Below are positions 2,730 to 46,821 of a DNA stretch of 64,000 nucleotides, piece by piece (position 1 is the first letter of the stretch; every line of letters starts with the position of its first letter). The DNA is taken from NCBI RefSeq assembly GCF_913019975.1, contig NZ_CAJWBH010000015.1. One strand, 5' to 3'. Below the pieces are notes generated by a model, which ran no database searches, was not told where the DNA came from, and saw nothing but the letters and a program-made list of their open reading frames with translations. Origin of the DNA: Thalassolituus maritimus. GTDB taxonomy: Bacteria; Pseudomonadota; Gammaproteobacteria; Pseudomonadales; Oceanobacteraceae. Position numbers and translations under genes: made by a program.

Positions 2730-4532
2730 ATGAGAAGCTTCCAGTCAACACCGGTGGACATGCCTGACAAACTGCGCGTTCGTCGTTGGCTGACTACTAT
2801 CTGGCCCTTTCTGCTGGAGTATCGCGGTCGGGTCATCGGGGCGATGATTTGCCTCTTGTTGGCCAAGCTGGCCAGCGTGGTTATGCCATTTTTGCTCAAG
2901 TATCAGGTCGATCATCTGGATGCAGCTGGCACCATTGGTGAGAACTGGTGGGCGGCGTTCCCGCTATTACTGTTGCTGGCTTATGGCACCGTGCGGTTTA
3001 TGACCGTGTTTGCCGGGGAGCTCCGTGATCTGCTGTTTGGTCGGGTCGCAGAGCGGGTGATGCGCAGAATGTCACTGGCGTTGTTCCGGCATCTTCACAG
3101 CCTGAGTCTTTCGTTTCACCTGGATCGTCAGACGGGTGCATTGCAGCGTGATATTGAGAGAGGGACTAACGGCATTTCGTTCCTGATGCGTTTTCTGATT
3201 TTCAATATCCTTCCGACATTTCTTGAACTCGGTCTGGTTATCGTTCTTCTCTTAATTAATTACCCGCCTGTGTTTGCCGGGATCACCCTGGTGGCCGTTG
3301 TTCTGTACGTCGGCTATTCAGTGAAGGTCACGGAGTGGCGTACGCGCTATGTGCGGGAAGCCAATCAGATGGACTCATCAACGCATGCCCGGGCGCTTGA
3401 TAGCCTCCTAAACTATGAGACGGTTAAGTACTTCACCGCGGAAGGGCGGGAGTCGGCTGACTACGACGGTTCACTTGCCCGCTGGGAAAAAGCCCGACGA
3501 ATGAACCGCTTGTCGCTGTTTACCCTGAACAGTGGTCAGGCGCTTATTATTTCAGTCGCCATGGCCTGCATGTTGATGTCAGCAGCGCACTATGTGCTCA
3601 TCGGGGAGATGACGTTGGGTGACTTCACGCTGGTGAATGCCTTTATGTTTCAGCTTTTTTTGCCTCTGAACTTCCTTGGCTTTGTTTATCGCGAGATTAA
3701 GGCGTCGGTCGCTAATATTGAGAGGATGTTTGTTCTGCTCGATATTGAAACCGACGTGCCCGATAACGCCACCAAAGGCCTGAATGTGACTCGCGGTGAG
3801 GTGGTGTTTGATCGGGTCGGTTTTGATTATGGCAACGGTCGGCAGGTGCTTAACGATCTGAGCTTTTCTGTGCCCGCAGGAAAGACGCTCGCGCTTGTTG
3901 GCGGCAGCGGCGCGGGTAAGTCAACGATAACCCGGTTGCTGTTCCGTTTTTACGATGTGACATCCGGTCAGATACGTATTGACGGTCAGGGTATAACCGA
4001 TGTTTCTCAAACGTCGTTGCGGCAGGCCCTGGGCATCGTTCCGCAGGATACCGTCCTGTTTAATGACACACTGAGAAATAACCTGCTTTATGCCTGCCCG
4101 GATGCCAGCGAGGCAGACCTGCAGGACGTTATACAGATGGCAAGTCTGGACAGGCTGGTTGCAGAAAATCCAGCCGGTCTGGAAACCGTCGTGGGGGAGC
4201 GAGGGTTAAAGCTGTCTGGTGGTGAAAAGCAGCGCATTGCCATCGCCCGAATGCTACTTAAAAGACCCGCCATTATGGTCTTTGATGAGGCGACTTCATC
4301 GTTAGATTCTGAAACTGAGCGCAGCATTATGAAAGAGATTCGCAGGGTGTCCGAAGGGCATACCGCGTTAATCATTGCGCACCGTCTATCGACGGTTGTC
4401 GATGCCGATGAAATTGCGGTTCTCGAAAACGGACAGATCGCAGAACGTGGCAACCACAGAGAACTTCTGGCAAAGAACGGTCGTTACGCGGCGCTATGGC
4501 AGGCTCAACAAGCCTCTGGGGAGATTGGCTGA
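2730..4532 (+). CDS. ATM1/ABCB7-like fused ABC exporter (permease + ATPase)
   Basis: FHLDRQTG..RDIERG, DSLLNYETVKYF, Walker A GGSGAGKS, LSGGEKQR, DEATSSLD. Confidence 0.88.
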   Translation: MRSFQSTPVDMPDKLRVRRWLTTIWPFLLEYRGRVIGAMICLLLAKLASVVMPFLLKYQVDHLDAAGTIGENWWAAFPLLLLLAYGTVRFMTVFAGELRDLLFGRVAERVMRRMSLALFRHLHSLSLSFHLDRQTGALQRDIERGTNGISFLMRFLIFNILPTFLELGLVIVLLLINYPPVFAGITLVAVVLYVGYSVKVTEWRTRYVREANQMDSSTHARALDSLLNYETVKYFTAEGRESADYDGSLARWEKARRMNRLSLFTLNSGQALIISVAMACMLMSAAHYVLIGEMTLGDFTLVNAFMFQLFLPLNFLGFVYREIKASVANIERMFVLLDIETDVPDNATKGLNVTRGEVVFDRVGFDYGNGRQVLNDLSFSVPAGKTLALVGGSGAGKSTITRLLFRFYDVTSGQIRIDGQGITDVSQTSLRQALGIVPQDTVLFNDTLRNNLLYACPDASEADLQDVIQMASLDRLVAENPAGLETVVGERGLKLSGGEKQRIAIARMLLKRPAIMVFDEATSSLDSETERSIMKEIRRVSEGHTALIIAHRLSTVVDADEIAVLENGQIAERGNHRELLAKNGRYAALWQAQQASGEIG

Positions 4533-13612: not shown

Positions 13613-13724
13613 GGTGGCCTTTGTCGGTCCCCTCGCAACGATACACCGCGAACCCCGCCAGGTCCGGAAGGAAGCAACGGTAGTGGTCGACTCGTGTGCC
13701 GGGGTGTGGCTGGCAGAGGTCATC
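13613..13724 (+). ncRNA. ffs: SRP RNA (4.5S)
   Basis: Conserved CCAGGTCCGGAAGGAAGCAAC domain IV; ends pair (ggtggcctttgtcgg / ctggcagaggtcatc); canonical position before dnaX. Confidence 0.92.
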
Positions 13725-13829: not shown

Positions 13830-16052
13830 ATGAGTTATCAGGTACTTGCGAGAAAATGGCGTCCGCGTTTCTTTGATGAAATGGTCGGGCAGGAGCACGT
13901 TCTGCGCGCGCTCATCAATGCGCTGAATGAAGGGCGTCTCCATCATGCGTACCTGTTTACCGGCACCCGCGGTGTTGGTAAAACGACGATTGCCAGGATT
14001 CTGGCCAAATGCCTCAACTGCGAGCAGGGCGTCAGCGCAAGACCCTGCGGCGAGTGCTCTTCTTGCCGTGAAATTGCAGAAGGCCGCTTCGTTGACCTGA
14101 TTGAAGTCGATGCAGCATCCCGTACCCGTGTTGAAGATACCAGAGAGCTCCTTGATAACGTTCAGTACGCGCCTACAAGAGGCCGCTTCAAGGTCTACCT
14201 GATTGACGAAGTTCATATGCTCTCAACCCACAGTTTTAACGCCTTGCTGAAAACGCTCGAAGAGCCGCCGGAACACGTTAAATTTCTGTTGGCGACGACC
14301 GATCCACAAAAGCTCCCCGTGACTATCCTTTCGCGCTGCCTGCAGTTCAGCCTCAAAAATATGACGCCTGAACGTATTGTTGGTTATCTGGGTAAAGTGC
14401 TGCAGGCGGAGTCTGTGCCGTACGACGAGCCGGCGCTCTGGTCTCTGGGGCGTGCTGCGCAGGGCAGTATGCGGGATGCGTTGAGCCTGACAGATCAGGC
14501 CATTGCCTTCGGTGAAGGTGAGGTTCATGAGTCGCAGGTCAACTCCATGTTGGGCAGTATGGATCGCGGCAGGCTCTTCAGGCTGGCCGAAGTGATGGCT
14601 AAGGCCGATGCCAGCGAAATCCTGGCGGAGACCGCTTCGATGGCGGAGCACTCTCCGGATTATGACGAGATTCTGCAGGGGCTTTTGCACATCTGGCATC
14701 GTGCGTCACTCGCTCAGGTTGTTCCTGATGCCATTGATAATGCCGAAGGCGATCGTGAAGCGATCCTGCAGTTGTCGATGGCGATGCCCGCCGAAGATCT
14801 GCAGCTGTGTTATCAGATCGCGCTTCAGGGGCGACAGGACCTCGCGATGGCACCAGAGCCTCGTCAGGGCTTTGAGATGATATTGCTGCGCATGCTGGCA
14901 TTCCGTCCGGCACCTGATGTCGTACCTGAACTCGACCTGGCGTCGGCGCTCGAAAAAAAAAAGCCACTGACAGCTCCAGCGGCTGAAGCTGTTTCTGGGG
15001 TTGGTAGTGGGGTCGTTCCGGAGTCTGATTCAGAGACTGCTGCAGGTACTGCATCAGAGCCGAACGAGCCTGCAGGGCAGTTCGAATCTCTCGGTTCTGT
15101 TTCGCCTGCTTCTGAGCCCGCTATTGCTGAGCCAGAAAAGTCAGAACCTCAGATTGCGACGCCTTCCGCTGCAGAGCCTATGGGTTCAGAGCCTGTAAAT
15201 TCAGAGCCTGTAAATTCAGAGCCTGTAAATTCAGAGCCTGTAAATTCAAAGCAGGCGCCAGAATCAATGGTAGCTACGCCCCAACAACCGGAACCATCCG
15301 CGACGCCAATCATTACAGATCATGCTGTCTCTGCGGAAAATTTAACGGCCGCTGATGCTTCTGTTGATACCCCTGCAGAGGCGCATTCCGGCAGCTCCAC
15401 TGGCGCTCCTGTTGAGGCTCCAGCCGATATCCCTGTCCAACAAGATGTCCCTGTCGAATATGAGTCTGCGCTGGCACCAGTGATGCCTGGTGATGAGACG
15501 CAGGAACGTCGCGATGGCTCTCTGGCCGACCTTATGGAGAACCCGGTTCCGCAGGCCGTGGTTGAGCCAGTGAGTGAGCCGGAAGTGTCAGGCTCATCGC
15601 CAGCGGCAGATGTTGAAGCCGAGTCGTCTGCCATGGCGAGTGTCGACGAGTTGCCCGAGCTGGCTCCTCATACCTGGCATATGTGGGTTGATCATCTGGC
15701 GCTCGCTGGATTACCTATGGCAATTGCCCGAAACAGTGCACTTATTCAGCGTGAAGAGGCGCCGGAAGGCACTGTGCTTGAGTTTGATGTCGATCCCGCA
15801 CAAGGCGCGTTGTACAACGATACCCAGCGAGAGAGAATCGCAACGGCTCTGAGGGAATTTCTGCCAGGTGTGACACTCAGAATGACTCTCACTGCAACAC
15901 GTGGAGAGACACCGGAGCAACGCAGGCAGCGGCTGCTGGCCGATGCGCTGTATTCAGCGCGTCAGGCAATCGACAGCGACCCTCTGGTGGACCAGATAGT
16001 TAATGAATTAGGCGGGCAGGTCATCGAAGACACTGTCCGCCCGAATACCTGA
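13830..16052 (+). CDS. dnaX: DNA polymerase III subunits gamma/tau
   Basis: MSYQVLARKWRP, GTRGVGKTT, DAASRT, IDEVHMLS; long acidic Pro/Glu linker. Confidence 0.97.
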   Translation: MSYQVLARKWRPRFFDEMVGQEHVLRALINALNEGRLHHAYLFTGTRGVGKTTIARILAKCLNCEQGVSARPCGECSSCREIAEGRFVDLIEVDAASRTRVEDTRELLDNVQYAPTRGRFKVYLIDEVHMLSTHSFNALLKTLEEPPEHVKFLLATTDPQKLPVTILSRCLQFSLKNMTPERIVGYLGKVLQAESVPYDEPALWSLGRAAQGSMRDALSLTDQAIAFGEGEVHESQVNSMLGSMDRGRLFRLAEVMAKADASEILAETASMAEHSPDYDEILQGLLHIWHRASLAQVVPDAIDNAEGDREAILQLSMAMPAEDLQLCYQIALQGRQDLAMAPEPRQGFEMILLRMLAFRPAPDVVPELDLASALEKKKPLTAPAAEAVSGVGSGVVPESDSETAAGTASEPNEPAGQFESLGSVSPASEPAIAEPEKSEPQIATPSAAEPMGSEPVNSEPVNSEPVNSEPVNSKQAPESMVATPQQPEPSATPIITDHAVSAENLTAADASVDTPAEAHSGSSTGAPVEAPADIPVQQDVPVEYESALAPVMPGDETQERRDGSLADLMENPVPQAVVEPVSEPEVSGSSPAADVEAESSAMASVDELPELAPHTWHMWVDHLALAGLPMAIARNSALIQREEAPEGTVLEFDVDPAQGALYNDTQRERIATALREFLPGVTLRMTLTATRGETPEQRRQRLLADALYSARQAIDSDPLVDQIVNELGGQVIEDTVRPNT
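14953..14993 (+). other. putative dnaX frameshift/slippage site (A10G plus downstream stem)
   Basis: A run 14953-14962, then G; TGA in the -1 frame at 14984 and in the +1 frame at 14968; gacagct/agctgtt stem 3' of the run. Confidence 0.65.
15186..15245 (+). repeat. 15-bp tandem repeat x4 (SEPVN) in the dnaX linker
   Basis: tcagagcctgtaaat, four perfect copies, preceded by a degenerate gcagagcctatgggt. Confidence 0.95.
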
Positions 16053-16425: not shown

Positions 16426-16953
16426 ATGGCCAGCCGACCGCGTGACTATCAGCTACTTTGCGAAGCATTCGATGGCTTGCCCGGTATCGGTGCGCAGGCA
16501 GCAGAGCGGCTGGCGGAATGGTTGGTCTATCACGGTGATAGCAGGCAGCTGGCGGAGGTCCTGACGCGCATTAACGAAGCGGGGCTCTGTCGGCTCTGTA
16601 ATCGTATTCAGTGCCAATCGGAGTGCCAGGCCAATGGCGCTTGCGCCGATTACTTTCTGGTGGCATCGACGGAAGCGGTACTCAATCGGTTGTCTGATAT
16701 TGTTGATTATCAGGGGCCGCTGTTTGTTTTGCACGGTGAGTTGTCGCCAGCAAGCGGGGTCGGCCCCTCTCAAATAAATATGGATGATCTGCTTGCGTCC
16801 GTTGAGCGCTTCCCAGAGGCGACGTTGTTGATACTCAGCGGTGATTCCGTTGAGGGGCGGACGACCGCAGAATATATTTTCCGGCGCTCGGGGCGGGCTG
16901 GTGAGCGTGTCAGTGTTGACCGTGCGAGTGAGATATTAAGGGGTCTTGATTGA
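16426..16953 (+). CDS. recR: divergent, shortened RecR
   Basis: LPGIGAQAAERLA HhH, CRLC, VLHGELSP..GVGP, SVEGRTTAEYI; syntenic; lacks the usual C-terminal segment. Confidence 0.75.
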   Translation: MASRPRDYQLLCEAFDGLPGIGAQAAERLAEWLVYHGDSRQLAEVLTRINEAGLCRLCNRIQCQSECQANGACADYFLVASTEAVLNRLSDIVDYQGPLFVLHGELSPASGVGPSQINMDDLLASVERFPEATLLILSGDSVEGRTTAEYIFRRSGRAGERVSVDRASEILRGLD

Positions 16954-41931: not shown

Positions 41932-42798
41932 ATGAATCGCCACCAGATCACGGGCGCAGGATTAGGTCTGCGCCGAGGGTTTATCTCAGAATTGCAGTCC
42001 CGCATAGAAAACGGCGTTGAAGTCCCCGTCGATTTTTTTGAGGTCGCGCCCGAGAACTGGTTACGGGTTGGTGGTCGTCTGGGCCGCCAATTCCGCTATT
42101 TTACTGAACGCTATCCATTTGCTTGCCATGGACTGTCGTTGTCTATTGGTAGCCCTGCTCCGTTGGACGAAGCGTTCGTCCGTGACGTAAAAGACTTTCT
42201 GAAAGAGCATAAGGTGGCGGTCTATAGCGAGCACCTGAGTTACTGCTCAGACGATGGCCATCTGTACGACCTTATGCCGCTTCCGTTTACCGAAGAAGCT
42301 GTCAAGTACGTCAGTGAGCGAATCATGAGAGTGCAGGACATTCTTGGTGAGCGCCTGGTGATAGAAAATGTTTCGGCTTATGTTGAGCCCGGACGCGAAA
42401 TGGCAGAGCCAGAATTCGTCAAAGCGGTGCTTGAAGCTGCCGACTGCGAGTTACTCCTTGATGTGAATAACGTCTACGTTAATTCAACAAATCACGGGTA
42501 CAACGCTGAAGAGTACATTCGCAGTATGCCGAGCGATAAAATCCGGTATTACCATGTCGCTGGCCACTATCAGGATACATCGGACGCCAGTGATGCTGAT
42601 CCTTCCTCGAATTTGTTGGTAGACACCCATGGTGCAGATGTTATTGAGCCCGTCTGGGCACTGCTATCAGCGGCTTATGATGCACACGGGATGAGACCAA
42701 CGCTTCTGGAACGGGATTTTAATTTTCCTGACCTCGACGAAATGTTTGCAGAGGTCTCGCAGATTAAGACTCTCCAGGAGGCGCTACTGCATGTCTGA
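41932..42798 (+). CDS. DUF692 / MNIO family enzyme (HvfB/BufB-like)
   Basis: GAGLGLRR, EVAPENW, HGLSLSIG, SEHLSY, ENVS, LLDVNNVYVN, HVAGH, DTHG, LLERD. Confidence 0.92.
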   Translation: MNRHQITGAGLGLRRGFISELQSRIENGVEVPVDFFEVAPENWLRVGGRLGRQFRYFTERYPFACHGLSLSIGSPAPLDEAFVRDVKDFLKEHKVAVYSEHLSYCSDDGHLYDLMPLPFTEEAVKYVSERIMRVQDILGERLVIENVSAYVEPGREMAEPEFVKAVLEAADCELLLDVNNVYVNSTNHGYNAEEYIRSMPSDKIRYYHVAGHYQDTSDASDADPSSNLLVDTHGADVIEPVWALLSAAYDAHGMRPTLLERDFNFPDLDEMFAEVSQIKTLQEALLHV

Positions 42799-43513
42799 TC
42801 TGGCGAAGATGCAAAGGGCGTTTGCCAAGGACATTCGCACTGATGGTGATGAAAGCTTCGGTGAACAGCCGGGCCTCAAAATTTATCGGGAGCTCTTTTT
42901 TAACAGTGTCTGTGGCTTTCTCGATGGTACCTTCCCTGTCTGTAAAGAGGCTGTCGGCGATGAGCGATGGAAGGAATATTCGCGGGCATTTTTTCGTGAT
43001 CACCAGTCAAACTCTCCGCTTTTTCTCGAAATAAGTGAGGAATTTCTGGCATGGTTGGTGACACAGCAAAGTATTCTTGGTGAGTTTCCATATCTGGCAG
43101 AGCTAGCTCACTATGAGTGGCTGGAGCTGGCCGTTGATGTGATGGATGTTGAAGGGTTCAGAGGTGAGCCTGATGCTCTCTTTGATCCGGGCTCGCCAAT
43201 TTTAATTAATCCTGCATCGATTGCTGCGTGTTATCAGTACCCGGTTCATCAGGTGTCAGGGTTTGAACCTGAGGTCTCGGAACAGATGTCGGGGTTTGTC
43301 GTTTATCGTGACCTGGCTGATAAAGTACGGTTTATCAGCTGCACTCCTTTGTCACTTATGATTCTCGAAACTGCACGGGCTGAACCGATGCTGACTGCAC
43401 GACAGGCCGTTGAATCGGTAATGTCTCAGGCTGGGCTGGATGGAGATGTTGCTCTTCAGGGGGCGCTGCAGGTTCTGGGTGACTGGCACCGGCAAGGTGT
43501 TATCCGCTCGTGA
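42791..43513 (+). CDS. DUF2063 partner protein (HvfC-like RiPP recognition)
   Basis: Q..FA..IR, IYRELFFN, FF..H..SPLFLEI..EFL, ELAHYEWLEL. Confidence 0.85.
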   Translation: MSDLAKMQRAFAKDIRTDGDESFGEQPGLKIYRELFFNSVCGFLDGTFPVCKEAVGDERWKEYSRAFFRDHQSNSPLFLEISEEFLAWLVTQQSILGEFPYLAELAHYEWLELAVDVMDVEGFRGEPDALFDPGSPILINPASIAACYQYPVHQVSGFEPEVSEQMSGFVVYRDLADKVRFISCTPLSLMILETARAEPMLTARQAVESVMSQAGLDGDVALQGALQVLGDWHRQGVIRS

Positions 43514-43551: not shown

Positions 43552-44301
43552 ATGAGCGCAACAAAAACAGGACGTCATCTTATGTATTTTCATTCCCTTG
43601 TTGCGCTGATTGGAACGGTTACCATTGGCCTCGCGGCGTTGCCTGCTCAAGCTGAAGAGGAATACGATCCTTTTGAAGAAACCAATCGCAAAATTTTCGC
43701 CTTCAATGATTACCTGGACCGAAAATTCTTTGTGCCTGTAGCAAGGGGGTACAACGCGGTGACCCCTGTGGTGGTAGATACCGGCATTACGAATATGTAC
43801 CAGAACGCGCTTGACCCTCTTACCAGTGTGAATGATGTCGCGCAGCTTAAATTCTCTAGGGCAGCTACGGCCGTGGGTCGATTTCTGGTGAACAGTACGG
43901 TTGGGTTTTTCGGCTTTTTCGATGTGGCGACGCACATCGGTCTGCCAAAGCATCGTGAAGACTTCGGGCAGACTCTCGGTTACTGGGGGGTCGGCAATGG
44001 GCCTTATCTGGTATTGCCGTTCTTTGGGCCACGTACCTTGCGTCATTCTGTAGGACATGTCGGCGACTATTACACCGGCCTGTCGTATACCTATTTTGGC
44101 GACAATCTCGGTGAAGATGCTGCGATGTTGGGCTTAAAAGCGCTCGACCTTCGTTCAGATCTGATTGAATCTGAGCAGTTTATTACCGGCGACCGTTATC
44201 TCTTTATCCGTAGTGCGTATCTTCAGAGCCGTGAGTATCTGGTCAATGATGGGCAGGTGCAGGATGAGTTTGAAGATGAGTTTGGCATCTTCGATGAATG
44301 A
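43552..44301 (+). CDS. mlaA: MlaA/VacJ-family protein
   Basis: DPFEETNRKIFAFND, RFLVNST.GFFG, EDFGQTLG.WG, YLVLPFFGP, RSAYLQ. Confidence 0.9.
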   Translation: MSATKTGRHLMYFHSLVALIGTVTIGLAALPAQAEEEYDPFEETNRKIFAFNDYLDRKFFVPVARGYNAVTPVVVDTGITNMYQNALDPLTSVNDVAQLKFSRAATAVGRFLVNSTVGFFGFFDVATHIGLPKHREDFGQTLGYWGVGNGPYLVLPFFGPRTLRHSVGHVGDYYTGLSYTYFGDNLGEDAAMLGLKALDLRSDLIESEQFITGDRYLFIRSAYLQSREYLVNDGQVQDEFEDEFGIFDE

Positions 44302-44322
44302 CTATAGATTACGACAGATAAT

Positions 44323-44350
44323 AAAAAAGGCCTCGTGAGAGGCCTTTTTT
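44323..44350. terminator. bidirectional intrinsic terminator
   Basis: aaaaaaggcctc-gtga-gaggcctttttt between convergent genes. Confidence 0.9.
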
Positions 44351-44354
44351 GTTT

Positions 44355-45662
44355 TTAGCCGGCTGTGCGCCCAGGGAGAACATCTTTCAGCTTCTCACGC
44401 ATTTTGCGGATTGCATCTTCAGTTTCTTCCCAGCTGATGCAGCCGTCTGTTACCGATAAGCCGTACTCCAGATCATCCAGGTTGGCTGGAATATTCTGAC
44501 GCCCGTGTTTGATGTTTGATTCAACCATCAGGCCGATAATGGATTTGTTGCCTTCAAGGATCTGGTTGCTGACGTTGTCCATGACTAATGGCTGCAGTGC
44601 CGGATTCTTGCTGCTGTTTTCATGGCTGCAGTCGATCATGATGTTCTGTGCAAGATCCGCTTTAGACAGTGCGTCTTCTGCAATCTGGACGTTCACTGAA
44701 TCGTAGTTTGGCTTACCGCCGCCGCCGCGCAGCACAACGTGTGCGTAAGGGTTGCCCTTGGTTGAAACGATTGAAACCTGGCCGCTCTGGTCGATACCAA
44801 GGAAGCGGTGCGGGTTGGCTACTGACATCAGTGCGTTAGTAGCAACTGTCAGGCTGCCATCGGTTCCGTTCTTGAAGCCAACGGCCGATGAAAGGCCTGA
44901 AGCCATCTCTCGGTGTGTCTGGGATTCTGTAGTGCGTGCGCCAATAGCTGACCATGCGATCAGATCCTGAAGGTACTGTGGTGAGATCGGGTCCAGCGCT
45001 TCAGTGGATAGTGGCAAGCCGAGCTCTGCAAGATCAATCAGAAGGCGACGCGCGGTATGCAGACCGTCCTGGATTTTGAAAGTGTCGTTCATGTACGGGT
45101 CGTTAATCAGCCCTTTCCATCCAACGGTAGTGCGAGGCTTTTCAAAGTAAACGCGCATTACAAGGTAGAGGGTATCGCTGACTTCTTCTGCCAGATCCCG
45201 CAAGCGCTGAGCGTAGTCTTTAGCTGCATCTACGTCGTGGATGGAGCAGGGGCCGACCACAACAAAAATGCGGTGATCTTTACGATCCAGGATGTCGCGA
45301 ATGGCCTGGCGGCCTTTACAGACGCTTTCGACAGCTTGCTCAGAGATAGGCATCTCTTCTTTGAGCTGAGTTGGGGTTACCAGAGTCGCGATGGACTCAA
45401 TATTGAGATCTTCAATGCGATTGTCAGTCATTTCCTGTTGGCCTTCAGACGGTTGGGCTGGTGTTGTCTCAGGTTGGGAGGGGGCTGAGCCTGCGGTCAG
45501 TTGCCCTTTGGTCAGGGCAGCAATTTGCTTCTGACGACCTGCTGGCGGCTCTTCTCCCCATTGGGAGACCGCCGCAGCGGTCAGCTTCCAGCCGTCTTCG
45601 GAACAGGCTTCTGCAATAGCTTTTTTGGTTCCGAACCAGGCGACAACATCAGTTGTTTTCAT
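44355..45662 (-). CDS. class I DAHP synthase (from internal Met78 at 45431) with in-frame N-terminal P22-Cro-like HTH
   Basis: GPCSIHD, KPRTTVGWKG, GARTTESQ, DCSH.NS, SVTDGC; residues 1-58 match P22 Cro pattern 'DV...FGT..A.A...AAVSQW.E..P'. Confidence 0.85.
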   Translation of the reverse strand: MKTTDVVAWFGTKKAIAEACSEDGWKLTAAAVSQWGEEPPAGRQKQIAALTKGQLTAGSAPSQPETTPAQPSEGQQEMTDNRIEDLNIESIATLVTPTQLKEEMPISEQAVESVCKGRQAIRDILDRKDHRIFVVVGPCSIHDVDAAKDYAQRLRDLAEEVSDTLYLVMRVYFEKPRTTVGWKGLINDPYMNDTFKIQDGLHTARRLLIDLAELGLPLSTEALDPISPQYLQDLIAWSAIGARTTESQTHREMASGLSSAVGFKNGTDGSLTVATNALMSVANPHRFLGIDQSGQVSIVSTKGNPYAHVVLRGGGGKPNYDSVNVQIAEDALSKADLAQNIMIDCSHENSSKNPALQPLVMDNVSNQILEGNKSIIGLMVESNIKHGRQNIPANLDDLEYGLSVTDGCISWEETEDAIRKMREKLKDVLPGRTAG

Positions 45663-45671
45663 AATTAGATA

Positions 45672-45729
45672 TTAAGTTAGCTTATTCGTGCTTAAGCTTA
45701 ATAGCCTGGCTGGGGTTAAGTAAAGTTAA
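45672..45729. promoter_or_regulatory. operator-like inverted repeats upstream of the Cro-DAHP ORF
   Basis: TTAAG-TTAG-CTTAT (45672-45685), TTAAGCTTAA (45692-45701), TTAAG-TAAA-GTTAA (45716-45729). Confidence 0.5.
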
Positions 45730-45732
45730 TTT

Positions 45733-45912
45733 TTAGCGAAGACGGCTTTGAATGTCCTTGAATCGTTCTACTTTATTTCTTTCGAAAAGCATTGGCTCGC
45801 TGCCTCCTGATGAGTCGAGGAGTCCCTCGCGAGCATAGCGCTTAACTGTCACAGTTTTGATTTCGAGGTACTTTGCGACTTCTTCGATGGTCATAAGTTG
45901 TTGGTCAGACAT
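45733..45912 (-). CDS. HTH_17 / excisionase-like small DNA-binding protein, 59 aa (absent from ORF track)
   Basis: Hand translation MSDQQLMTIEEVAKYLEIKTVTVKRYAREGLLDSSGGSEPMLFERNKVERFKDIQSRLR*; AAGGAG SD. Confidence 0.82.
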   Translation of the reverse strand: MSDQQLMTIEEVAKYLEIKTVTVKRYAREGLLDSSGGSEPMLFERNKVERFKDIQSRLR

Positions 45913-46047
45913 GCTCGCACTCCTTTATGTATATGCACTGGAGTAAGAGTTTAGTCAGGATTTGACAGCGTGTTGGCGGGCGGTGGTTCGTTGCGCCTGA
46001 CTCAGCTGACAGAGCAGGCGCTTTGTTTGGTTGGGGCGCAAGTATTG

Positions 46048-46821
46048 TTACTGGAACATGTACCGTGCACCCATGAAAAACAGAATGCTTGCAAGAGCAG
46101 GGCGCAGTATTGCGTCAGGAACCTTGCGGCTGATCATGCTTCCGAAGTGGATGGCTGGAATGGAACCCAGGAGCAGTGCGCCGAGTAGTTGGAAGTCGAC
46201 ATTGCCAAGGCCCAGGTGGATAAGGCCAGCAGCGAGTGTCAGTGGAACGGCGTGAGCGATATCGGTGCCGACGATGTGAGTGCCCCGGAGTGCAGGGTAG
46301 AGAATCATGAGGATGGCTGTACCAATAGCGCCAGCGCCGACAGACGAGAGTGTAACGAATATGCCGAGCAGGATGCCCATGACGATAGTTGCGGCTGGTC
46401 TGAATCGACTCAGGTTGCGGGCGTTGCGGGCCGCCGCAAAGGCTTGAATGCGTGTTCTCATGAAGATAACGACGGCAGTCATGACCAGCATGATGCCGAG
46501 GGCGTTTTTCAGCAGGTGGCCGTAGTCTTCAGCGTCATTGAAGAACACGTGAAGAAGGGCGCCGGTAATTAGTGCGGCGGGTATTGAGCCAGCAGCAAGA
46601 AGTTTGACCAACCCCCAATTGACGTGCTTTTGTCTGTGATGGCTATACGCTCCGCCGGCCTTCGTTAATGCCGCGTAGAGCAGATCGGTTCCGACAGCGG
46701 TATGCGCTGGGAAGCCAAAGCTGAGCAGAAGTGGCGTCATCAATGCGCCGCCACCAATGCCGGTCATGCCTACAATAAAGCCGACGGCAGCGCCGGCACC
46801 GATATAAAGCAGAAAATCCAT
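46048..46821 (-). CDS. TauE/SafE sulfite exporter family
   Basis: GMTGIGGGALMTP, AVGTDL, SSVGAGAIG, VGTDIAHAVPL. Confidence 0.9.
   Translation of the reverse strand: MDFLLYIGAGAAVGFIVGMTGIGGGALMTPLLLSFGFPAHTAVGTDLLYAALTKAGGAYSHHRQKHVNWGLVKLLAAGSIPAALITGALLHVFFNDAEDYGHLLKNALGIMLVMTAVVIFMRTRIQAFAAARNARNLSRFRPAATIVMGILLGIFVTLSSVGAGAIGTAILMILYPALRGTHIVGTDIAHAVPLTLAAGLIHLGLGNVDFQLLGALLLGSIPAIHFGSMISRKVPDAILRPALASILFFMGARYMFQ

Follow-up and report, generated by a model that had tools for sequence, protein, structure and literature searches.

The 64,000-nucleotide (nt) stretch of the Thalassolituus maritimus genome analyzed here (contig NZ_CAJWBH010000015.1 of assembly GCF_913019975.1; hereafter the window) carries a single uninterrupted open reading frame (ORF) of 435 amino acids (aa), cro::aroF, at 44355..45662 (stop codon included) on the minus strand, as are all features of the locus given below unless noted. 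In this ORF a phage-type Cro domain precedes a 3-deoxy-D-arabino-heptulosonate 7-phosphate (DAHP) synthase, the committed entry of aromatic amino-acid synthesis and a model for the evolution of allostery by domain recruitment. Thalassolituus is a marine oil-degrading genus. The protein begins with MKTTDVVAWFGTKKAIAEAC and comprises three parts: a Cro module with the all-alpha fold of P22/N15-type Cro (aa 1–58; 45489..45662), a 19-aa linker of low complexity made up of Ser, Pro, Gln, Thr, Ala, and Glu (aa 59–77; 45432..45488), and a catalytic class I-alpha DAHP synthase of the AroF (Tyr-sensitive) type (aa 78–435, 358 aa; 44355..45431). The original prediction, made from the nucleotide letters and the translated ORFs, had proposed an unbroken ORF, a P22-type Cro domain over aa 1–58 with an AAVSQW helix, and a linker leading into a normal class I DAHP synthase from Met78; all of these were borne out by domain models, structural matches, and alignment, as follows.

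The Pfam family P22_Cro (PF14549) matches aa 2–63, scoring 42.4 bits when the protein is taken whole and 46.6 bits for the module by itself (gathering threshold 30.2), and the N-terminal part also matches PHROG 409, a phage transcriptional regulator (E = 2e-8). When a profile of the module was compared with solved structures, the sole convincing match was P22 Cro (1RZS; E = 3e-8), with the AAVSQW of the module aligned to the AAVSQW of P22 Cro. The recognition helix, T28-A-A-A-V-S-Q-W35 (45558..45581), is identical to that of P22 Cro at H2–H7; A30, A31, V32, Q34, and W35 do not vary among the aligned fused proteins, and this base-contacting helix is the best-conserved part of the module. An AlphaFold2 (AF2) model of the module, built from 68 diverse sequences, had a predicted local distance difference test (pLDDT) score of 88.8, with helices at residues 3–10, 13–22, 29–33, and 41–50. 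The top Foldseek matches of this model (template modeling (TM) scores 0.67–0.77) were DNA-bound N15 Cro (6ON0; 0.76), P22 Cro (1RZS; 0.77), and Xfaso-1 Cro. A full-length AF2 model from 14 close homologs had a pLDDT of 52, too poor for use. The N-terminal module is a phage P22-type Cro helix-turn-helix (HTH) domain.

Exhaustive searching with HMMER across 1.84 billion representative proteins returned 350 relatives of the module; of the best 150, two are truncated copies of the fusion and the others are free-standing proteins of 56–118 aa. Homologs annotated as Cro are found in phages of Vibrio, Pseudomonas, and Escherichia coli. In the phage locus L015 the relative adjoins a divergent cI-like repressor gene, and in L017 it directly precedes an O-like replication initiator gene. 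The fused cro is not a free-standing phage gene: it is chromosomal, lies between genes for HTH_17 and MlaA proteins, and has no cI-like neighbor.

Compared with P22 Cro, the HTH turn of the module, which joins helices 2 and 3, is longer by five residues (the “DGW” insertion), and the closest free-standing relatives also carry this insertion together with a PPxGRQ motif. Among the fused proteins, Cys20 at the end of helix 2 and the Asp-Gly-Trp of the insertion (Asp23 onward, codons 24–25) are invariant (45594–45605 for codons 20–23); the DGW insertion is common to the nearest free-standing phage Cro proteins (P0123–P0130), and Cys20 is not. DAHP synthases have repeatedly gained N-terminal regulatory domains, and a former HTH without DNA binding might instead regulate the enzyme or recruit a partner, in the manner of class I-beta add-on domains, and the invariant Cys20 and the insertion in the HTH turn would suit such a role. 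We consider this very unlikely: the DGW insertion is also present in free-standing phage Cro proteins, the helix that contacts bases is what is conserved best, and cognate-looking operators in the gene's own promoter (see below) travel with the module.

The catalytic part scored 270.9 bits against the Pfam model DAHP_synth_1 (PF00793; aa 110–416; cut-off 25.5); in NCBIfam it scored 527.9 bits against the DAHP synthase subfamily PRK12755 (NF009395; aa 79–428; cut-off 343) and 491.9 bits against TIGR00034 (cut-off 173.2), with scores for the AroG and AroH equivalog/subfamily models under their cut-offs. The best solved match is the Tyr-sensitive AroF of E. coli (6AGL; 427 bits), compared with 371 bits for the Phe-sensitive AroG. 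The catalytic motifs GPCSIHD, KPRTTVGWKG, DCSHENS, MVESNI, and SVTDGCI, which we take to be metal or substrate ligands, align residue for residue with both E. coli enzymes and are invariant across 19 relatives, and the enzyme looks fully functional. In the motif FLGIDQ, a Gly is aligned with a Ser of AroG (FLSVTK); AroF also has Gly at this position. A Gly/Ser rule for Tyr versus Phe feedback is said to stem from work on yeast Aro3 and Aro4. Judged by these residues and matches, the enzyme is probably tyrosine-inhibited. A conserved N-terminal segment, MTDNRVEDLNIES, begins directly after the linker. The Met78 codon (45429–45431) aligns to Met1 of unfused relatives; its equivalent is invariant across the alignment and is the start of the unfused enzymes. 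Databases label the fused protein merely as “3-deoxy-7-phosphoheptulonate synthase.”

The fusion might in principle be an artifact of a wrongly called stop codon, a chimeric assembly, or read-through during annotation. We regard this as extremely improbable: all sampled 31-mers of the stretch are present in 15 DNA sequencing runs, DNA contigs from two of those runs show no substitutions, indels, or joints over 44100–46200, RNA contigs cross the junction, and the fusion is found in twelve independent assemblies. A homology search recovered the same two-domain architecture in 16 protein clusters (427–450 aa; 79–100% identical), of which the named ones are from Thalassolituus; the next-best matches were unfused enzymes of 355–360 aa from Bacterioplanoides, Bacterioplanes, Oceanobacter mangrovi, and unnamed Oceanospirillaceae/Saccharospirillaceae. 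A scan of one genome per species found the module encoded at 10 loci, every one in a genome of the Thalassolituus clade. Together with the window and L001, these make up 12 fused loci, and the fused ORF is intact in all of them. The window is 95.3% identical in nucleotide sequence to T. maritimus DSM 24913 over 6.2 kb.

Among the relatives, none has cro and aroF as separate ORFs; each either is fused or lacks cro. Across nine non-redundant loci, the linker is unalignable, ranging from 16 to 36 aa with hypervariable sequence, yet it is in frame and free of stop codons throughout. For these loci, the joint probability that the linker would never gain a stop is ~8e-4, and the probability that every change in linker length would be a multiple of three is ~1.5e-4. 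The ratio of nonsynonymous to synonymous change (dN/dS) in the Cro module is 0.03–0.19 wherever it could be calculated, with synonymous sites saturated between species (proportion of synonymous differences, pS, 0.5–0.9). Because the linker stays in frame and stop-free, and dN/dS is low at saturated synonymous sites, the fusion appears to be selectively maintained, with selection on the reading frame and purifying selection on the Cro module, and the Cro part is probably translated and functional. The original prediction had allowed that the linker could be a read-through intergenic spacer, and had named separate cro and aroF genes in relatives as an outcome that would overturn the fusion. The former is excluded, and the latter was not encountered; a variable linker free of stops recurs in every relative that carries the Cro module.

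Two operator-like boxes lie within 70 nt before Met1. Candidate sites were scored by the number of mismatches to the P22 operator core TTAAG-N4-CTTAA, a pattern fixed in advance; the P22-type operators of the annotated phage ES18 record share this core, e.g., AGTTAAGTCATCTTAAAT and ATTTAAGTGTTCTTTAAT. The proximal box (ATAAG-CTAA-CTTAA; 45672..45685), 10–23 nt before Met1, and the core of the distal box (TTAAC-TTTA-CTTAA; 45716–45729) each have one mismatch, and they account for two of the three sites with at most one mismatch in the 64-kb window. The distal box extends to a 19-mer, AAAAATTAACTTTACTTAA (45716..45734). Paired sites with at most two mismatches are present in 12/12 fused loci, spaced start-to-start by 44 bp in seven loci, 43 bp in two, and 42 bp in one; the L007 pair is shifted 55 nt away from the ATG, and its spacing is still 44 bp. 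The exact 14-mer of the distal core, TTAACTTTACTTAA, is present in 10 of the 12 loci, in nine of them 62–68 nt before the ATG, and it persists also where the upstream neighbor differs; when nine loci are aligned on the distal box, the invariant stretch widens to the 19-mer. The second (proximal) box stands ~10–25 nt before the ATG across the fused loci. Boxes are absent upstream of the four closest unfused aroF genes, where the best score with a position weight matrix (PWM) was 3.4 bits; those four loci have instead an extended -10 element, TGTCATAAT, and a normal AGGA Shine-Dalgarno sequence, and the fused loci lack TGTCATAAT. The boxes thus co-occur strictly with the Cro module, and by their sequence they look like phage operator sites.

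Two further likenesses of the distal box were examined and rejected. Its visual resemblance to the region upstream of the L017 phage cro failed the core-pattern test, and as a TyrR box (TGTAAA-N6-TTTACA) only its right half fits, the key G of the left half being absent in all loci. The third site in the window, TTAAGGGGTCTTGA (16936–16949; one mismatch), lies at the end of a recR-like ORF, inside coding DNA and 14 nt before an RNase D-like gene (DNA_pol_A_exo1 + HRDC), and is probably a chance match.

In phages, the core is associated with the same recognition helix. In 30 distinct viral loci encoding a free-standing Cro that bears an AAV(S/T)QW helix, the 130 nt before cro have a core density of 7.95 per kb, compared with 0.14 per kb elsewhere in the loci (~56-fold), and 11/30 loci have at least two core sites, typically 46–49 bp apart. 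For the AAVSQW helix, the published Cro recognition code (PMC6649833) predicts the ...AG half-site of TTAAG, since it matches Ala at H3 to A at position +5 and Gln at H6 to G at position +6. Phage L015, which has the helix QQAISNW, carries other palindromes (CAACT/AGTTG). Two or three near-perfect TTAAG-N4-CTTAA sites were seen upstream of cro in the uncultivated phages L035, L036, L043, L044, L050, and L052–L054, all with an AAVSQW helix, so P22-type operator specificity seems widespread beyond enterobacterial phages. Such phages raise the possibility that the fused protein has its targets elsewhere, at P22-like phage operators (immunity interference) or in a wider regulon, the boxes at its own gene being left over from the capture: immunity regions of marine phages with the same helix often contain the core. 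The retention of the aroF box pair across the genus at fixed spacing speaks against it, as does the location of the sole other site of the window inside coding DNA. We consider it highly unlikely as an explanation of the fusion, although targets elsewhere and autoregulation could coexist.

Promoter-like elements are interleaved with the boxes. A -35-like TTTACT (45719–45724) lies inside the distal box, and a -10-like hexamer, TAAGCT (45695..45700), follows 18 nt after it; in most species a TAnnnT hexamer (TAAGCT, TAACTT, TAATCT, or TAATAT) is found 17–18 nt past the TTTACT. From these elements, transcription is predicted to start at ~45687–45689, ~25 nt before Met1, which would place the proximal box at about +3 to +17. 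In five runs, cro and aroF share a single RNA contig; in three deeper metatranscriptomes, a contig of both genes takes in the upstream HTH_17 gene as well. In four low-depth runs the contigs covering cro end at 45668–45680, 6–18 nt before Met1, and three of those four have a coverage gap toward the HTH_17 gene; in a further deep run, the depth over aroF is ~5x that over the HTH_17 gene. Differences in depth between cro and aroF were inconsistent between runs. The spanning contigs, their ends, and the depths indicate that the aroF mRNA includes the Cro codons and that the gene is probably transcribed from a promoter of its own within the 70-nt spacer. As a separate observation, RNA contigs break within ~30 nt of the linker/Met78 boundary (45401–45436) in five independent metatranscriptomes; these breaks are most likely assembly-graph bubbles, where a strain-variable linker meets conserved aroF, and may alternatively reflect RNA processing or an internal 5' end.

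The two candidate start codons differ in their ribosome-binding sequences. Before Met78, a Shine-Dalgarno-like GAAGG...AGGA (45433..45446), which encodes X-Gly in the linker, is kept in 12/12 fused loci, with AGGA or GGG 6–9 nt upstream of Met78 in every one. The mean energy of the duplex with the anti-Shine-Dalgarno sequence at Met78 is -4.1 kcal/mol (combined p ~0.005), against -3.9 to -4.3 kcal/mol for unfused aroF starts; at Met1 it is -1.1 kcal/mol, no better than background, such that Met1 is essentially without a Shine-Dalgarno sequence. Since Met1 is weak and Met78 has a normal Shine-Dalgarno sequence, two products are likely, a minor Cro-tagged form from Met1 and the plain enzyme from Met78, in line with the earlier suggestion that Met78 may also initiate. 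At the protein level, TOL_1615, the orthologue in T. oleivorans MIL-1 (UniProt M5E3H3; 438 aa), had 21–31 spectral counts in the supplementary table of a shotgun proteomics study (PMC6304351). The same table gives TOL_1615 as differentially abundant between growth substrates (p = 0.037; ~21, 22, and 31 spectral counts), which hints that its level is regulated (PMC6304351). Residues 1–80 of TOL_1615 include the sequences LTSAAVSQWGDEPPLGR and QIEALTNGTLR, and its candidate internal start is Met81.

The disparity between the two starts would also suit a scenario in which the cassette was captured as a portable promoter: Met78 has a full-strength Shine-Dalgarno sequence and Met1 has none, the native promoter of the unfused relatives has been replaced, and what matters would be the Met78 enzyme, with the Cro-tagged form a tolerated by-product. 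Such a tag would be useless and would be lost through stop codons or frameshifts, whereas here both the frame and the stop-free state have survived many indels; the low dN/dS at saturated synonymous sites and the near-invariant recognition helix likewise point to a module under selection in its own right. We thus regard the passenger scenario as quite unlikely.

On balance, and with moderate confidence, we posit that a captured phage operator–promoter–cro cassette has made the aroF product a self-repressing enzyme-repressor. Under this proposal, a fragment of a temperate-phage immunity region, comprising cro, the right operators, and the promoter associated with them, would have been captured directly before the gene for the Tyr-type DAHP synthase in an ancestor of the Thalassolituus clade. 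A disordered linker would have come to connect cro and aroF in one continuous reading frame, and the captured promoter would have displaced the native one with its extended -10 element. Translation from Met1, behind a short leader without a Shine-Dalgarno sequence, would yield the full-length Cro–DAHP synthase, and translation from Met78, with the ancestral Shine-Dalgarno sequence, would very probably yield the plain 358-aa enzyme as well. P22 Cro shows no dimerization without DNA even at millimolar concentration, and the strength of dimerization is a main determinant of apparent operator affinity (PMC6649833). In the fused protein, the oligomeric (dimeric or tetrameric) enzyme body could supply the dimerization required for operator binding, and Cro tethered to an oligomer would therefore be a high-avidity repressor. 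Two Cro pairs of one oligomer could occupy the two boxes, which lie about four helical turns apart over the -35 region and the predicted transcription start, and would repress rather than activate the gene's own promoter, such that enzyme concentration would feed back on transcription. The suggestion in the original prediction that fusion couples expression of the enzyme to a Cro autoregulatory loop gains indirect support, namely from two predicted operator-like boxes that strictly co-occur with the fusion.

Several observations weigh against this proposal. The boxes are imperfect: with a PWM derived from true P22 operators they score 8–17 bits (10.3 for the distal box of the window), compared with 18–22 bits for real operators, and the upstream region beats shuffled sequences in only 5/12 loci. 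The T. oleivorans-type loci L001 and L009 are without the exact distal box and have a spacing of 54 bp, and the extreme conservation of the distal box could reflect promoter elements only (-35 or UP-like). A scan for consensus promoters called none in the 70-nt region, the hexamers being weak. The RNA evidence consists of assembled contigs rather than read ends, and the proteomic evidence for TOL_1615 consists of protein-level counts, with peptide positions not given in the table (PMC6304351). No donor phage was found in viral contigs, where the best Cro is 49% identical; there are 66 viral matches to a 17-mer of the box, none of which coincides with a Cro locus. In a neighbor-joining (NJ) tree of the catalytic domain, the fused genes are not monophyletic; the conflicting nodes have 30–41% bootstrap, so the tree neither supports nor rejects one origin, and a single origin of the fusion is the simplest reading on account of the shared junction, boxes, and synteny. 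Finally, a flexible linker of 16–36 aa argues against precise allosteric coupling between the enzyme and the Cro module.

This last point bears on another version, in which the fusion is a one-component sensor: tyrosine (at the allosteric site) or substrates would alter the presentation of the Cro module, such that operator occupancy follows the aromatic pool, and the protein would stand in for a regulator of the TyrR type. The original prediction had likewise raised a DNA-binding trigger enzyme, whose binding might be modulated by aromatic amino acids, phosphoenolpyruvate (PEP), or erythrose 4-phosphate (E4P). In favor of a sensor, the catalytic part resembles AroF and has the Gly of the Tyr type, and the conserved segment MTDNRVEDLNIES directly follows the linker. 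In E. coli AroG and AroF, the N-terminus contributes to the inhibitor site. The known enzyme-repressors BirA and RbkR work in such a manner (PMC4016012; PMC5397151). We nevertheless judge both the sensor and its standing in for TyrR to be unlikely, because the long, variable, and probably disordered linker is poorly suited to relay a conformational change and makes tight coupling less likely. The same tentative standing applies to a complete one-component feedback device, with a Tyr-sensing oligomer carrying two Cro pairs, transcription responsive to tyrosine or substrates, and a set-point tuned by the ratio of Cro-bearing to plain subunits, for which the two start codons would compete. If such a device were real, it would make this enzyme the first DAHP synthase to double as a transcription factor, and it would be a clear case of a phage switch rewired into core metabolism.

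The proposed enzyme-repressor can be set against known systems for each of its parts. P22 Cro (1RZS) and N15 Cro (2HIN, 6ON0) belong to the same Pfam family as the module (TM ~0.76–0.77), P22 Cro shares AAVSQW at H2–H7, and the core TTAAG-N4-CTTAA likewise lies just upstream of the fused gene. The phage proteins are free-standing (~60 aa), encoded in an immunity region beside a divergent cI with three adjacent operators, whereas the fused form is chromosomal and joined to a 358-aa enzyme, with two boxes, the DGW insertion, and no partner repressor gene. E. coli AroF (6AGL, 6AGM) matches over the full catalytic length, with identical motifs and the Gly at the AroG-Ser position; it lacks any added domain and is regulated in trans through TyrR, in contrast to the cis DNA-binding module and phage-type promoter boxes of the fused gene. 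AroA of Bacillus subtilis, with an N-terminal chorismate mutase domain, and the DAHP synthase of Thermotoga maritima, with an ACT/ferredoxin-like domain, likewise carry a discrete N-terminal domain attached through a linker. Both are class I-beta enzymes whose added domain is a metabolite binder that gates the active site, whereas the fused enzyme is class I-alpha with an allosteric site of its own, and its add-on is a DNA-binding HTH.

To our knowledge, all described add-on domains of DAHP synthases bind metabolites; a full-text literature search, which included Thalassolituus, found no description of a fusion between a DAHP synthase and a DNA-binding domain. Closer in kind are group II BirA and the archaeal RbkR, which combine an N-terminal HTH with a pathway enzyme and have predicted sites at promoters of their own pathway (PMC4016012; PMC5397151). 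DNA binding by BirA and RbkR depends on the ligand or product of the enzyme, a dependence that is hypothetical for the fused protein; furthermore, the HTH of the fused protein is of recent phage origin, would have arrived with its operators, and is restricted to one genus-level clade. For the use of two starts, a parallel is IncC (ParA) of plasmid RK2, which has two established isoforms from alternative in-frame starts, of which the longer alone has an N-terminal DNA-binding part (PMC2666795). The fused gene likewise has a second start codon inside the frame, preceded by a ribosome-binding sequence of its own, and its two products are predicted.

A DNA-binding add-on would extend the repertoire of DAHP synthases to transcriptional control by the enzyme itself, and a whole phage operator–promoter–cro cassette would have been domesticated to drive a housekeeping gene. 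The arrangement also suggests a route by which a monomeric Cro could gain affinity, through tethering to an oligomeric enzyme. The fusion is confined to one genus-level clade, and the functional steps are ones that we infer; the system is small, consisting of one protein and ~70 bp of DNA, and is present in the cultivable T. oleivorans MIL-1 (TOL_1615) and T. maritimus.

The surroundings of the fused gene are those of its unfused relatives, in which the gene order is pabB, HAD hydrolase, cysH, LysR/CysB gene, TauE gene, 59-aa HTH_17 gene, aroF, and MlaA gene; the neighborhood is the same at fused and unfused loci, the latter without cro. The gene order linking aroF to cysB in the original prediction is accordingly present as to the neighbors, with the TauE and HTH_17 genes also standing between aroF and cysB; the pseudomonad setting given for it does not apply, the taxon being Thalassolituus and not a pseudomonad in the narrow sense. 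In the window, the ORF directly upstream of cro::aroF (59 aa; 45733–45912) is HTH_17/MerR/excisionase-like and shares bases of its stop codon with the A-run of the distal box. Because the HTH_17 gene is kept beside the TauE gene in both fused and unfused relatives, it was not part of the phage cassette. In T. oleivorans MIL-1, TOL_1614, TOL_1615, and TOL_1617 are among the entries listed in the proteomics table, and TOL_1616, possibly the HTH_17 orthologue, was maybe undetected (PMC6304351).

In unfused loci, a DUF72 gene on the opposite strand lies between the HTH_17 gene and aroF (L003, 5009–5842; L018, 3010–3939; L019, 2963–3907); in L020 no gene was called in the equivalent 1-kb gap (3011–4000), which may hold a decayed DUF72 copy. 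Directly 3' of the cro::aroF stop codon is an intrinsic-terminator-like hairpin with a T-run (44323..44350; 12-pair stem with 5 G-C pairs). Beyond it, two overlapping ORFs of 288 and 255 aa occupy 41932–43513 on the plus strand, corresponding in relatives to MbnB/TglH/ChrH-family and HvfC-like proteins; upstream of this pair, relatives have a small ORF of 116–143 aa without a Pfam match. The region looks like a conserved peptide-modification or metal-related cassette adjoining the MlaA gene. The 64-kb window contains no tRNA genes; it does encode a bacterial small signal recognition particle (SRP) RNA (Rfam RF00169; 72.5 bits) at 13622–13718 on the plus strand, just before a dnaX-like gene (13830–16052).

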